From: a virus
Taxonomy: Duplodnaviria; Heunggongvirae; Uroviricota; Caudoviricetes
DNA length: 4,177 nt
Reading direction: 5' to 3' (one strand)
Virus record (IMG/VR): IMGVR_UViG_2711768070_000005
Coordinates: 1-4,177 of that record
Shown here: piece by piece, positions 1-4,177 of the stretch
Layout: each line of letters opens with the position of its first letter
Numbering within the stretch: the first letter of the stretch is position 1
Position numbers and translations under genes: made by a program
The notes under the pieces: model-generated
Databases searched by the model: none
The model's input: only the letters and a program-made list of their open reading frames with translations
What the model was told of the DNA's origin: nothing

Positions 1-1
1 T

Positions 2-37
2 CTGGAGCTTATCAGTAAACAGAGAGGTTCGAAGTGA
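2..37 (+). CDS. 3' end of an upstream phage gene (partial, runs off the 5' edge)
   Basis: Frame 2 is open from the window edge to TGA at 35-37. This stop overlaps the GTG start of the next gene as GTGA (34-37), a typical coupled junction. Frame 1 also ends at TAA 16-18, so the frame assignment is uncertain. Confidence 0.25.
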   Translation: MELISKQRGSK

Positions 38-591
38 GCGAAATTAATTATCAGGCACTGCGTGAAAAGGCAGAAAAAGCAACTAAAGGGAGCTACATCG
101 TAGGGCATACATCTGTTAATCGGCATGGCAATTTAACAGGAGTTTTTGTTTGTCAAAAATGGAAAGAAGAACCCGGTGGTGTGATTGCGGAATGTCATGT
201 TAACTGCCTGGTTGAAACAGATGTTCAGGCTTATGCAAACGCTGAATTTATTGCTGCTTTTAATCCAAATGTTGCGCTGGCACTGCTGGATGAACAGGAA
301 AGGAACCAGCAATACATCAAACGCCGCGACCAGGAGAACGAGGATATTGCGCTAACGGTAGGGAAGCTGCGTGTTGAGCTTGAAGCAGAAAAACAGCGGG
401 CAAAAGTTCTATTTATGGAAAATGCTCGGCTTAAGTCAGGCATAGCCGGTCTGATACACCTCGGTATTCGATATGCAGATGTTGAGGTCATGAAAATTGC
501 TGGAGATGCCCAGCTTTCTACTCCATGCACTGACAGCATCATAAACAGCATTGCAGCAGGCATTTTCACCAAAGAGGGGGCAGCACGATGA
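34..591 (+). CDS. Ead/Ea22-like phage early protein (185 aa)
   Basis: GTG start at 34 preceded by AGAGAGG (21-27) at 6-nt spacing. The N-terminal region (QALREKAEKATKG...NAEFIAAFNPNVALALLDEQE) matches my recollection of the Ead/Ea22-like family, followed by a charged coiled-coil-like segment. Family assignment is from memory, not a search. Confidence 0.65.
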   Translation: MSEINYQALREKAEKATKGSYIVGHTSVNRHGNLTGVFVCQKWKEEPGGVIAECHVNCLVETDVQAYANAEFIAAFNPNVALALLDEQERNQQYIKRRDQENEDIALTVGKLRVELEAEKQRAKVLFMENARLKSGIAGLIHLGIRYADVEVMKIAGDAQLSTPCTDSIINSIAAGIFTKEGAAR

Positions 592-731
592 GAACACTAG
601 AGGTTCGCGCTGAAGACGTAATCCCTGGTGATGTGCTCATAACATCTAAAGGTCAACAATGTGCGGTTAAATCTTTTTGGATGGAAAATGACAAAGTGAC
701 TTCAGTTCGGTACGGATGGTTCCGAAACTGA
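588..731 (+). CDS. Small hypothetical phage protein (47 aa), translationally coupled
   Basis: ATG at 588 overlaps the upstream stop as ATGA (588-591). A strong SD, GAGGGGG (574-580), lies 7 nt upstream. Open to TGA at 729-731; translation MRTLEVRAEDVIPGDVLITSKGQQCAVKSFWMENDKVTSVRYGWFRN. Absent from the ORF track because it is short. Confidence 0.5.
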   Translation: MRTLEVRAEDVIPGDVLITSKGQQCAVKSFWMENDKVTSVRYGWFRN

Positions 732-773
732 TTATGACTATGACGAATTGCTTGTTATTGAGAGAGCTGCCTA

Positions 774-1196
774 ATGACCACCTTTACCAAAGAACAGTTA
801 ATCTCCCATGCACGCGAAAGCGTTAGTTATCTGGAAAACTTGAAAGGACGTGTTAGCAAAGAAGGTGCGGACTGCAAAGTTGTTATTGAGATGGTTGCAC
901 GAGATCTAAAACTGGCACGAATTGCACTGGCCTCGCTGGAAGCAAAACCAATAGGTGCATTCCACATTGCAGAACAGCAAGTTGACGGCACAAGTGACTA
1001 CATCAAGGATGGGGAATGGCCTATTGATAATGGAATTATTGAGGTCTACGCCGCTCCCCCCGTTCCAGTAGTACCGGAAGAAAAACCAATGCCTAATCCT
1101 CTTAGCATGTACGCGGTTGATGCTGTTGCCGCTATTGCAGAGGTGAGAGGCTGGAACGCCTGCCGCGCTGCAATGCTTCAGAGAAAAGGAGAGTGA
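774..1196 (+). CDS. Hypothetical phage protein (140 aa)
   Basis: ATG at 774 with GAGAGAG (760-766) 7 nt upstream. The stop TGA (1194-1196) sits 1 nt before the next ATG. No family recognised. Confidence 0.65.
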   Translation: MTTFTKEQLISHARESVSYLENLKGRVSKEGADCKVVIEMVARDLKLARIALASLEAKPIGAFHIAEQQVDGTSDYIKDGEWPIDNGIIEVYAAPPVPVVPEEKPMPNPLSMYAVDAVAAIAEVRGWNACRAAMLQRKGE

Positions 1197-1197
1197 T

Positions 1198-1704
1198 ATG
1201 ACCACTATAACCGATAAGAAACAGTATCCAGGCGAGCAATATCTTAATGAGCTGATCACCAACATAGAGTTTGCGGCAAGGGCACCAGTTGAAGTCGTGA
1301 GAGCGATGGCAGCAGAGCTACAGAAGCGGCGCGAAGCTGATAGTGCAGAACCTGTAAGCCAAACTTACAAGTTAACTTTTGAGCAATGGCTGGAACAGCA
1401 GCACGGCAAAATTGATGTTGATTGCGGCTGTGTGAGCACTGAAACGCTTCTGCACTGGATGCGTGTGGCGTATGAGGCTGGCAACTCTCCGGTAATTCCG
1501 GATGGTTGGATAAACTGTAGTGAGCGAATGCCGGATACAAAAACAGCCGTTCTTGTTGCCGTGGAGTTTGGCAGGAAAGGTGACTGGCGAATGAAATGGG
1601 CGACTTACATCCCGGGGCATCCTGACGCTAATGATGGGTGGATAATTCCTGGTGCGTCGTGGAAACCGTCACACTGGATGCCGCTACCAGAGCCTCCACT
1701 TTGA
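1198..1704 (+). CDS. DUF551-domain phage protein (168 aa) with an N-terminal extension
   Basis: ATG at 1198 with AGGAG (1187-1191) 6 nt upstream. The C-terminal ~65 aa (GWINCSERMPD...VLVAVEFG...GWIIPGASW..SHWMPLPEPPL) fits the DUF551 signature as I recall it (W-I-x-x-x-E-R-L/M-P ... HWMPLPEPP). Confidence 0.75.
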   Translation: MTTITDKKQYPGEQYLNELITNIEFAARAPVEVVRAMAAELQKRREADSAEPVSQTYKLTFEQWLEQQHGKIDVDCGCVSTETLLHWMRVAYEAGNSPVIPDGWINCSERMPDTKTAVLVAVEFGRKGDWRMKWATYIPGHPDANDGWIIPGASWKPSHWMPLPEPPL

Positions 1705-1800
1705 AAGCGAAGCTTATACATATCTTTTACATCAGCAATCTATTGTTAATCTCCAATCAATGTTACGTTGTCATCTCACTCATGCTTTGGAGGTAGTGAT

Positions 1801-1980
1801 ATGTCTTGTCCAAAATGCGGTTCTGGAAATATTGCAAAAGAAAAAACAATGCGTGGATGGTCTGATGATTATGTGTGCTGCGATTGCGGATACAACGACT
1901 CTAAAGACGCATTTGGAGAGCGTGGTAAAAACGATTTTGTCAAAATTAATAAAGAACGCGAAGGCAACGAAAAAAGCTAA
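1801..1980 (+). CDS. Small zinc-ribbon protein (59 aa; CPKC...17 aa...CCDC)
   Basis: ATG at 1801 with a consensus SD, GGAGG (1789-1793), 7 nt upstream. Two Cys pairs (CxxC ... CxxC) form a zinc-ribbon pattern. The ORF track starts this frame at TTG 1768, but the ATG with SD is the more likely start. The overlapping 115-aa ORF (1652-1999) in another frame is judged spurious. Confidence 0.55.
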   Translation: MSCPKCGSGNIAKEKTMRGWSDDYVCCDCGYNDSKDAFGERGKNDFVKINKEREGNEKS

Positions 1981-2043
1981 TTTATTTATTCATATATGAA
2001 AACAATGTAACCAATATTCGAATTGAAGAACTGAAAGAACACC

Positions 2044-2066
2044 AAGCCGCCTGATGGCGGTTTTTT
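2044..2066 (+). terminator. Rho-independent terminator of the upstream early operon
   Basis: GC stem CCGCC (2047-2051), loop TGAT, GGCGG (2056-2060), immediately followed by TTTTTT (2061-2066). It lies 64 nt after the zinc-ribbon stop. Confidence 0.65.
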
Positions 2067-2076
2067 CTTGCCTGAT

Positions 2077-2092
2077 TTGCAGGTTCGATTCC
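2077..2092 (+). other. Orphan tRNA-Arg (argW) T-arm fragment, 16/16 nt; not a functional tRNA
   Basis: TTGCAGGTTCGATTCC is identical to the variable-loop end, T-stem and T-loop of argW as I recall it (...AATTGCAGGTTCGATTCCTGCAGGGGACACCA). The downstream sequence (CTATTCGG) cannot pair with GCAGG, and there is no acceptor stem, so it is a fragment. Confidence 0.55.
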
Positions 2093-2111
2093 CTATTCGG
2101 AGATAGCACTC

Positions 2112-2312
2112 ATGCAACACGAACTACAACCTGATTCACTGGTTGATTTGAAATTCATCATGGCCGATACTGGCTTTGGTAAAACCTTCATCTACGACCG
2201 GATTAAGTCCGGCGACCTGCCAAAAGCCAAAGTTATCCACGGTCGAGCAAGATGGTTATATCGTGACCATTGTGAATTCAAAAATAAGCTCTTAAGCCGC
2301 GCCAATGGGTAA
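2112..2312 (+). CDS. torI: Prophage excisionase / recombination directionality factor, Xis-type winged helix (66 aa)
   Basis: ATG at 2112 with GGAGA (2099-2103) 8 nt upstream. The translation MQHELQPDSLVDLKFIMADTGFGKTFIYDRIKSGDLPKAKVIHGRARWLYRDHCEFKNKLLSRANG matches my memory of E. coli TorI (66 aa, KplE1 RDF). Its position as the last gene before the att core fits an RDF. Confidence 0.8.
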   Translation: MQHELQPDSLVDLKFIMADTGFGKTFIYDRIKSGDLPKAKVIHGRARWLYRDHCEFKNKLLSRANG

Positions 2313-2328
2313 AATAGCGGGTAAAATA
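2307..2328 (+). promoter_or_regulatory. Tandem direct repeat GGGTAAAATA-gc-GGGTAAAATA; candidate integrase arm-type or RDF binding sites in the attR arm
   Basis: Two exact 10-bp copies (2307-2316 and 2319-2328) with 12-bp periodicity. They overlap the torI stop codon and lie 58 bp from the att core. The function is inferred only from position. Confidence 0.35.
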
Positions 2329-2385
2329 TTTCTCACACCTAAAAAACACCATTCCAATCAATCCCCTGCTGCCTCAAGTAGATGT

Positions 2386-2401
2386 CTGCAGGGGACACCA
2401 T
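2386..2401 (+). other. attR core: duplicated 3' end of tRNA-Arg argW (CTGCAGGGGACACCAT); prophage/chromosome junction
   Basis: Exact match to the last 15 nt of argW (CTGCAGGGGACACCA) plus T, the 16-bp core I recall for KplE1 attL/attR. Sequence to the left does not match argW, so identity ends at the core boundary. Confidence 0.7.
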
Positions 2402-2519
2402 TTATCCTTCCAACGAAATCTACCTTCCCCGCGTAAAAGTTGGGTTTGGCAGCACACTTGCCCTAAATCTACTCATTTTCCCTGCAACAGGTTGAAATCT
2501 CAGCACTGTGCGGCGATGA

Positions 2520-2756
2520 CTAAACAGCCCCGGGCCTGGCAATGTAATCATCACACAGAATCCTGATCGCGAAATCTGGCTTGACTCGATACTTCACTCC
2601 GCAATGCATTCCTTGATGGATTAGCAGGCCCGTGATACACGGGACAGGTCGCTGAATTACGACAATTTCCTGGAAATCAGCGAACCGCGTATCCTGAGTA
2701 CATTTGAGCGACTGTTCCAGAACATGAATGAGGCGTTTGGATTAGGCGATTATTAG
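2520..2756 (+). pseudogene. Possible gene relic: protein-like open frame with an in-frame TAG (2622-2624); strand and identity unresolved
   Basis: The plus frame reads LNSPGPGNVIITQNPDREIWLDSILHSAMHSLMD*QARDTRDRSLNYDNFLEISEPRILSTFERLFQNMNEAFGLGDY*. The minus strand in the same codon phase is open across 2520-2741 (…LLIHQGMHCGVKYRVKPDFAIRILCDDYIARPGAV*). There is no credible start or SD on either strand. It could equally be non-coding. Confidence 0.2.
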
Positions 2757-2835
2757 CCGCGATAAGCATTTTGGTATTATTATTTTCCGGTTGAGGGATA
2801 TAGAGCTATCGACAACAACCGGAAAGAGTTTACGT

Positions 2836-4083
2836 CTATATTGCAGAAGGTACAGGCGTTTCCATCACCATTTGCTCACGTTTTTTACTCAGGAAGAAAA
2901 TGCCAAATAACAACATCAGGCAGACAATACCCGAAATTACGAAGAAAACCGTCTGGTAACCTGCATGGTCAAAAAGTATTCCAGTCGGCGTTGAAAGCAA
3001 CACAATCCCCAACGAACTGGCAATTTGAAAACCAATCAGAAAGATCGTCGACGACAGGCGTTTATCAAAGTTTGCCACGCTGTATTTGAAGACGGAAATG
3101 ACACACAGTGGAACCTCAATGGCATGTAACAGCTTCACTAATGAAATAATCCAGGGATTAACGAACAGTGCGCAGGAAAGAATACGCAACGCCATAATCA
3201 CAACACCGATAAGTAATGCATTTTTTGGCCCTACCCGATTAACAAAGAAAGGAATAATGGCCATGCACAGCGCTTCGAGTACAACCTGGAATGAGTTGAG
3301 ATAACCATACAGGCGCGTTCCTACATCGTGTGATTCGAATAAACCTGCATAAAAAACAGGAAAGAGCTGTTGATCAAAAATGTTATAGAAAGACCACGTC
3401 CCCACAATAAATATGACGAAAATCCAGAAGTTTCGATCCTTGAAAACTGCAATAAAATCCTCTTTTTTTACCCCTCCCGCATCTGCCGCTACGCACTGCT
3501 GATCCTGATATTTAAAACGCATGTTGATCATCATAAATACAACGCCAAATAGCGAAACCAACCAGAAGTTGATATGGGGACTGATACTGAAAAATATGCC
3601 AGCAAAGAACGCGCCAATCGCATAGCCAAAAGATCCCCAGGCGCGCGCTGTTCCATATTCGAAATGAAAATTTCGTGCCATTTTTTCGGTGAAGCTATCA
3701 AGCAGACCGCAGCCCGCCAGATACCCCAAGCCAAAAAAGAGCGCCCCCAAAATTAGACCTACAGAAAAATTGCTTTGCAGTAACGGTTCATAAACGTAAA
3801 TCATAAACGGTCCGGTCAAGACCAGGATGAAACTCATACACCAGATAAGCGGTTTCTTCAGACCGAGTTTATCCTGGACGATGCCGTAGACCATCATAAA
3901 TAGAATGCTGGTAAACTGGTTGACCGAATAAAGTGTACCTAATTCCGTCCCAGTCAACCCTAGATGTCCTTTCAGCCAAATAGCGTATAACGACCACCAC
4001 AGCGACCAGGAAATAAAAAAGAGAAATGAGTAACTGGATGCAAAACGATAGTACACATTTCTGAATGGTATATTCAGTGCCAT
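2836..4083 (-). CDS. cscB: Sucrose:H+ symporter, LacY/oligosaccharide-H+ symporter family MFS permease (415 aa)
   Basis: Long minus-strand ORF ending in TAG (complement of 2836-2838). The translation MALNIPFRNVYYRFASSYSFLFFISWSLWW... matches my memory of E. coli CscB and shows LacY-family features. The ORF track start (TTG, 4101) adds 6 residues; the ATG at 4083 giving MALNIPF is the likely real start. Confidence 0.85.
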   Translation of the reverse strand: MALNIPFRNVYYRFASSYSFLFFISWSLWWSLYAIWLKGHLGLTGTELGTLYSVNQFTSILFMMVYGIVQDKLGLKKPLIWCMSFILVLTGPFMIYVYEPLLQSNFSVGLILGALFFGLGYLAGCGLLDSFTEKMARNFHFEYGTARAWGSFGYAIGAFFAGIFFSISPHINFWLVSLFGVVFMMINMRFKYQDQQCVAADAGGVKKEDFIAVFKDRNFWIFVIFIVGTWSFYNIFDQQLFPVFYAGLFESHDVGTRLYGYLNSFQVVLEALCMAIIPFFVNRVGPKNALLIGVVIMALRILSCALFVNPWIISLVKLLHAIEVPLCVISVFKYSVANFDKRLSSTIFLIGFQIASSLGIVLLSTPTGILFDHAGYQTVFFVISGIVCLMLLFGIFFLSKKREQMVMETPVPSAI

Positions 4084-4094
4084 AATTACCGTAA

Positions 4095-4120
4095 GCGTCA
4101 ACGGAGCACCGTATTGACGC
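4095..4120 (-). repeat. Inverted repeat GCGTCAA-N12-TTGACGC in the intergenic space upstream of cscB
   Basis: A 7-bp perfect inverted repeat (4095-4101 and 4114-4120) lies between the stop of the upstream minus-strand gene (4121-4123) and the cscB ATG. It could be an mRNA hairpin or a protein-binding palindrome. Confidence 0.35.
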
Positions 4121-4177
4121 TTATTTATTGGTGAGTACTACGTTCCATGGCAGGAGTTCGTCAACTCGGTTGGAAGG
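4121..4177 (-). CDS. cscK: 3' end of an upstream minus-strand gene (partial, 18 codons plus stop); probably fructokinase cscK
   Basis: Only one minus-strand frame is open from the window edge to TAA (complement of 4121-4123); it reads ...PSNRVDELLPWNVVLTNK*. The cscK assignment rests on the known cscKB operon arrangement; I cannot confirm the CscK C-terminus from memory. Confidence 0.45.
   Translation of the reverse strand, partial: PSNRVDELLPWNVVLTNK

Follow-up and report, generated by a model that had tools for sequence, protein, structure and literature searches.

The 4,177-nucleotide stretch of viral DNA analysed here (IMG/VR record IMGVR_UViG_2711768070_000005, positions 1 to 4,177, referred to below as the window) carries the sequence GGGTAAAATA twice in close succession, at the very end of the torI gene and a short distance before a recombination core. 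The question raised by this locus is what such a repeat represents: binding sites for an integrase, sites for the RDF encoded next to it, promoter elements, part of a coding sequence, or a duplication that arose by chance. The two copies are very probably the P1/P2 arm-type sites of an IntS-type tyrosine integrase in the attR of a KplE1/HK620/Sf6-type prophage at argW, an assignment that comes from sequence comparison.

The repeat and the attachment site around it

The window is the right end of a lambdoid/P22-like prophage followed by bacterial DNA. Early genes of the ead/Ea22-like, DUF551 and Eag types lie 5′ of torI, which encodes a 66 aa RDF (excisionase) at positions 2112–2312 of the + strand; it appears in the open reading frame list and carries the RefSeq annotation torI. 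The module order met in the window is this TorI-type RDF gene, then the P arm, then the 16-bp recombination core CTGCAGGGGACACCAT (2386–2401, + strand), which represents the argW 3′ end and whose sequence is given in PMC2951348. The bacterial part carries the sucrose permease gene cscB at 2836–4101 on the minus strand, for whose close homologues RefSeq uses the name 'oligosaccharide MFS transporter'. A search of the window for tRNA genes found none.

Copy 1 of the repeat (P1-like) is found at 2307–2316 and copy 2 (P2-like) at 2319–2328, both on the + strand, with GGGTAAAATA exact in each; the perfect 10-bp repeat described in the initial annotation is thus present. The conserved part of copy 1, GGGTAAAA, occupies 2307–2314. 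That annotation had the copies head to tail with 12-bp spacing. The 12-bp period holds, but the copies are not strictly head to tail, as a 2-bp GC spacer (2317–2318) lies between them. Copy 1 covers the last torI codon GGG (Gly66, 2307–2309) and, as had also been noted, the stop codon TAA (2310–2312), so the end of the RDF gene and the putative arm site share bases. Copy 2 is wholly non-coding. Between copy 2 and the core there are 57 nt (2329–2385); the earlier figure of 58 bp is right as an end-to-start offset but not as a count of intervening bases.

When the window was shuffled 2000 times with dinucleotides preserved, 148 shuffles (7.4%) contained an exact direct repeat of at least 10 nt at an offset of 10–25, and taken alone the repeat is only marginally unusual. 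No enrichment of the 10-mer GGGTAAAATA with up to 2 mismatches was seen in the window. The frequency of equally good close repeats in shuffled windows is what speaks for a chance duplication or replication slippage without function. The meaning of the repeat is therefore drawn from its position and conservation, not from the repeat by itself.

As to position, the TorI product is 100% identical to the RDFs of E. coli genomes and of 80 viral contigs, and the torI DNA is 97–98% identical to HK620 hkaC and Sf6 gene 18. The torI-to-core segment shows the same 97–98% identity to the attP of phages HK620 and Sf6 and differs at only a few positions from the attR of the K-12 cryptic prophage KplE1/CPS-53. 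When torI, the repeats and the core are compared together with K-12 KplE1 attR and HK620/Sf6 attP, the match is 97–100%. The core itself is identical in K-12 attL, K-12 attR and HK620 attP, where the HK620 record labels it 'attP core'. Of 5426 complete E. coli genomes, 1404 carry an identical 132-nt segment. The window segment is taken on these matches to be the attR of a KplE1/HK620/Sf6-type module at argW, which agrees with the placement of the repeats in an attR arm proposed at the outset.

The repeats lie in an attachment arm outside the core, 57–79 nt to its left, and inside the 135-bp attR. The primer attR-IHF2 (CTCTTAAGCCGCGCCAATGG, sequence from PMC3509656) matches the + strand exactly at 2290–2309 and forms the outer end of the 135-bp attR substrate. 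Use of this primer has been described and the 135-bp attR recombines in vitro (PMC2951348). From the position of the primer match it follows that the repeats are inside DNA sufficient for in vitro excision. In addition, GenBank AF335538 (HK620) has marked TGGGTAAAATAGCGGGTAAAATA and two P′ blocks as 'repeat_region attP' since 2001. The fallback reading of the initial annotation, an uncharacterised element, is set aside by this attP repeat annotation and by the location within the in vitro attR substrate.

An integrase with a domain suited to such sites belongs to the module. K-12 IntS contains the Arm-DNA-bind_3 domain at its N-terminus (PF13356, residues 2–86, E = 2.1e-25), which fits a heterobivalent integrase, together with central and catalytic domains; the integrase of the window prophage itself lies outside the window. 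Between the repeats and the core, at 2356–2368 of the + strand, is the IHF-consensus-like site AATCAATCCCCTG, with one mismatch to WATCAANNNNTTR. The window contains 8 matches to the IHF consensus against 5.9 expected, so that AATCAATCCCCTG alone is statistically non-distinctive. The CAA...CCTG bases of this site are kept in relatives, and the name 'attR-IHF2' given to the primer suggests that IHF sites have been mapped. The sites for IntS, TorI and IHF in both attL and attR were reportedly mapped and mutated by Panis et al. 2007 (J Biol Chem 282:21798) and by Panis et al. 2010 (Virology 404:41).

Two further observations concern the window as a whole. The first is that at 2402–2406 the bacterial side of attR continues TTTAT(C), resembling the phage P′ arm. 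The window attR has 21 nt of identity with HK620 attP at this place as against the 16-nt core in K-12, and E. coli SCPM-O-B-8794 shows the TTTAT(C) continuation too. It might be the scar of an earlier element at argW beside the csc island. A search to the right of the core for an integrase remnant or a decayed P′ arm yielded none beyond these 5 extra matching bases.

The second is that the window, end to end, is matched by no complete E. coli RefSeq genome (the best reaches 72% coverage with 95% identity), unlike the attR segment alone, which has a 100% match among complete E. coli genomes. The early-gene region is mosaic relative to sequenced prophages. In the closest complete genome, NZ_CP148357.1 (1826000–1885500), a lambdoid prophage directly adjoins the torI-attR-cscB end, and at its far end this prophage borders on ybhB/bioA, where lambda attaches, and not on argW with intS. 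This arrangement suggests a prophage-mediated rearrangement or a hybrid prophage. NZ_CP148357 gave no matching attL, and the arm comparison below used K-12 attL and HK620 attP.

The motif in the opposite arm and across relatives

In K-12 attL, just 5′ of the intS ATG, related sequences are found on both strands: the + strand carries GGGTAAAAAG and GGATAAAATA, the − strand GGGTAAAATT and GGGTAAAAAT. The 46 nt that precede the intS start codon run GGGTAAAAAG-t-GGATAAAATA, then AATTTTACCC and ATTTTTACCC on the opposite strand, a total of four copies. The four P′ arm copies in HK620 attP are arranged as in K-12. The initial annotation had named copies at attL or in the intS promoter region as the thing to look for, and four are found there in both K-12 and HK620. 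Four IntS arm-type sites, P′1–P′4, have been mapped in the intS promoter region; TAAA is common to all of them and P′1 overlaps the −10 box TAaAAa (PMC2951348). Because GGGTAAAAAG contains this −10 box, the four attL copies are P′1–P′4, and by their sequence they are seen to coincide with these published IntS sites. Thus in K-12 and HK620 a multi-copy motif distinct from the core is present on both arms, with two copies in P and four in P′.

The motif is concentrated in the attachment sites. In the 12.2-kb K-12 KplE1 region exact GGGTAAAA occurs 6 times, with a mean of 0.45 in shuffled sequence and no shuffle of 1000 reaching 6; five of the six are located in attL or attR. In 3.2 kb of HK620 it occurs 5 times, always in attP (shuffle mean 0.11, with 0 of 1000 reaching the count).

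The same mapping of attL bears on whether the repeats could be binding sites for the RDF, TorI, comparable to the direct repeats bound by lambda Xis beside the excisionase gene. The repeats adjoin torI, and in PMC7498355 direct repeats of about one helical turn (here 12 bp) are described as typical of RDF sites. However, the mapped TorI sites are five pentamers of the form GTTCG/GATCG/GTCCG, all in attL between the core and the intS promoter (PMC2951348), which is where the initial annotation had placed them. The corresponding pentamer GWYCG is absent from either strand of the window at 2245–2564, the repeats are in attR, and their motif equals the P′ motif of IntS. With the pentamer missing and the arm being the wrong one, this alternative, which the initial annotation had kept beside the integrase sites, is rejected as very unlikely.

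A role mainly as promoter elements, driving or regulating rightward transcription across the core, could likewise be read from the motif. Each copy contains TAAAAT, a near-consensus −10 sequence, and the homologous attL site P′1 overlaps the functional −10 box of intS (PMC2951348). A sigma-70 scan of positions 1950–2850, however, gave no promoter-like sites, and by eye no acceptable −35 hexamer stands 16–18 bp upstream of either copy. Moreover, the T that completes the −10 hexamer varies in relatives, whereas the bases of GGGTAAAA are conserved. In view of the negative scan the promoter interpretation is rejected and considered highly improbable.

Conservation was examined with prophages whose RDFs are 60–85% identical, collected by an RDF-alignment scan of one genome per species that gave matches in Serratia, Citrobacter, Dryocola, Pantoea, Tatumella, Rouxiella and Edwardsiella; a phage collection contributed Klebsiella and Erwinia phages. 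With Escherichia included, this provided 19 distinct attR/attP sequences from at least nine genera, with RDFs 60–100% identical and the register set from the RDF stop codon. All 19 have a common layout of GGGTAAA, a variable stretch and then GGGTAAAA, with the 12-bp period in 19 of 19, and GGGTAAA is invariant in these diverged sequences. Eighteen of the 19 have the core at a constant distance, with no indel in about 95 nt, and in Pantoea latae it is displaced by 1 nt.

Mean pairwise identity over the 19 sequences is 0.93 for the 8-mer of copy 1 and 0.99 for the 8-mer of copy 2, which is fully non-coding and the best conserved block of the arm. It is 0.52 for the 4 nt between the copies, 0.51 for the 34 nt after copy 2, 0.48 for the last two bases (TA) of GGGTAAAATA and 0.77 for the core; non-coding bases next to copy 2 fall between 0.48 and 0.54. 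The unit under selection appears from this alignment to be the 8-mer GGGTAAAA and not the 10-mer, the TA end being variable in relatives. Viral contigs provided 80 loci, all with a 100% identical RDF and so almost no added divergence: 49 carry the exact 22-mer, 29 end right after torI and 2 have TT for TA at the end of copy 2.

The footprint decides on the chance origin considered above for the repeat. Nineteen diverged sequences of at least nine genera retain the motif at its 12-bp period between flanks that are only about 50% identical, a flank identity that excludes recent transfer of one sequence, and the motif is found four more times in the other arm. A functionless duplication, rejected on this phylogenetic footprint, is therefore extremely improbable.

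Copy 1 is a more complex case, as it is shared with a gene end. All 20 sequences compared use GGG for the terminal Gly and TAA as the stop, although the four residues before them are variable, and part of the copy 1 conservation could come from this coding role. A comparison over five informative synonymous columns shows an apparent DNA-level constraint on copy 1 beyond coding.

The repeats might also be viewed as a by-product of coding, either as the context of the torI stop or as the start of the open reading frame known as hkaB/gene 17 (MGKIAGKI...). An ATG-started open reading frame of 43 aa (2305–2436) does begin in copy 1, and it is an annotated CDS in HK620 (hkaB), Sf6 (gene 17) and Midgardsormr38 (ORF36). 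However, open reading frames of this type range from 17 to 70 aa in 22 relatives and have lost the ATG in three (two CTG, one GTG). Their similarity lies mainly at DNA sites, namely the arm repeats, a CCCCTGC block and the core. The frame has no Pfam match and crosses the recombination core, so that its end changes on integration, and copy 2 is outside torI yet is the best conserved block. With variable length and start and a core-crossing frame, the coding explanation is rejected as exceedingly unlikely, and the open reading frame at 2305–2436 is most likely an annotation artefact.

The copies in attR are assigned to IntS because of the identity of their motif with the attL sites, the conservation, and earlier work on the module. 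The integrase arm-type reading first put forward from the sequence is in this way supported by a motif shared with attL P′1–P′4 and by a conserved sequence and period. The arm sites are already known.

Proposed role and neighbouring elements

The analysis shows directly where the repeats lie, that their motif recurs in the mapped attL sites, that sequence and spacing are conserved, and that IntS has an arm-binding domain; from these observations we infer binding of IntS at both attR copies, a bend by IHF and a bridging geometry. Two integrase protomers would dock, through their N-terminal arm-binding domains, on the pair of GGGTAAAA units, which share a strand and have a 12-bp period. The stretch of about 57 bp between these units and the core would be bent, probably by IHF at AATCAATCCCCTG, and the arm would return towards the core, where the docked protomers could grip core-type sites, either in attR itself or in the partner attL, with their catalytic domains. 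Together with TorI on its five attL sites, this would give the excisive intasome. In the phage form, P1/P2 would serve as the P arm of attP in integration. IntS binding at the attR copies and the bridging geometry are said to have been established by Panis et al. 2007 and 2010.

P1/P2 could do more than provide a scaffold. IntS bound there might act as a roadblock at the torI 3′ end, or transcription of torI might strip IntS from the sites, and either would couple RDF expression to assembly of the excisive complex. The idea arises because copy 1 and the torI end are shared, no terminator is found between torI and the core, and the homologous P′1 represses intS in attL. We consider such coupling unlikely.

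An inverted repeat reaches from the arm into the core. Its left arm TCCCCTGC (2362–2369, + strand) is the exact inverted complement of the right arm GCAGGGGA (2388–2395) inside the core, with 18 nt between the two. Most of the 19 diverged attR/attP sequences retain the pair, and three Pantoea have lost it. In Rouxiella (CCCCTAC/GTAGGGG) and in Edwardsiella (TCCCTGC/GCAGGGA) the two arms have changed in concert. As RNA the inverted repeat folds at −17.3 kcal/mol (z = −3.25). The two arms could represent half-sites of core type for the integrase, or they could form a hairpin where the torI transcript ends (3′). A contribution of this conserved hairpin-forming sequence (2362–2395) to coupling between torI and excision is a possibility.

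Another element lies on the 5′ side of torI. The 16 nt of TTGCAGGTTCGATTCC (2077–2092), located 20 nt before the torI start codon, exactly repeat the T-arm segment of argW that is directly next to the core when the tRNA gene is intact; the K-12 equivalents are at 10476–10491 of the KplE1 locus for the T-arm-like block and at 555–570 for argW. A similar block, (C)AGGTTCGATTCC, is found about 20 nt before the RDF start in Serratia, Citrobacter, Edwardsiella, two Pantoea and a MAG, with unrelated flanks. Erwinia phage Midgardsormr38 has two tandem copies of it, and other relatives lack it. The block contains GTTCG, a TorI-site pentamer, and the HK620 record marks its place as a cII-activated promoter. 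Possible readings are an operator through which TorI acts on the torI promoter, a duplicate of the core half-site from the attB side, or a relic. Just 5′ of this block and of torI, at 2044–2063, there is a strong terminator-like hairpin AAGCCGCCTGATGGCGGTTT followed by a T-run, which makes a separate torI promoter between 2064 and 2111 probable.

Arm-type sites determine how the complex that carries the prophage into and out of the chromosome is arranged in space, and a KplE1-type module is carried by about a quarter of complete E. coli genomes and by phages of several genera. For the window the result is of use in annotating it correctly: attR has its functional left limit at the repeats, and they also indicate that the small open reading frame starting in copy 1 is no gene. 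The current understanding of the module is unchanged by these results. A modest refinement is the description of the unit as the 8-mer GGGTAAAA with a fixed 12-bp period and an almost fixed distance to the core, a unit that holds the C-terminal Gly and ochre stop of the RDF fixed.

Comparison with known systems

The closest system is the KplE1 (CPS-53)/HK620/Sf6 module. The window has the same 16-bp core, the same RDF, the same 22-nt repeat block as K-12 attR and HK620 attP, and the same P′ motif. There is no difference of substance in the repeat, and the window represents the module itself and not a variant of it. Relative to K-12, two substitutions are found further along the arm, at 2349 and 2374, and the bacterial neighbour is cscB with the csc island where K-12 has dsdC.

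Relative to phage lambda the module works alike, with several differences. In both systems the integrase is heterobivalent, short arm motifs unlike the core are present on both arms, a site for a bending protein, putative in the present module, lies between arm and core, and the RDF acts on one arm. The lambda sites for comparison are the Int arm-type sites P1, P2 and P′1–P′3 and the IHF sites H1, H2 and H′. The lambda arm-type consensus is about C/AAGTCACTAT, whereas the arm motif here is GGGTAAAA. Number, orientation and spacing also differ: the present module has a direct pair of P sites with a 12-bp period and four P′ sites, of which two are direct and two inverted. The RDF is bound on the integrase-proximal arm here (attL) and not on attR, one arm site overlaps the stop codon of the RDF gene, and another overlaps the −10 box of the integrase gene. 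These features all belong to the module as published. In addition, the integrase here is of the P4 type (Arm-DNA-bind_3) and does not have the lambda N-terminal domain family.

The P4 integrase and Vis resemble the present system in other ways, as they share a P4-family integrase with Arm-DNA-bind_3 and the 3′ end of a tRNA gene as target. The P4 arm sites overlap the int promoter and lead to negative autoregulation, as here (PMC2951348). The target tRNA and the arm motif are different, however, and Vis has been proposed to act on RNA, whereas TorI binds DNA (PMC2951348).
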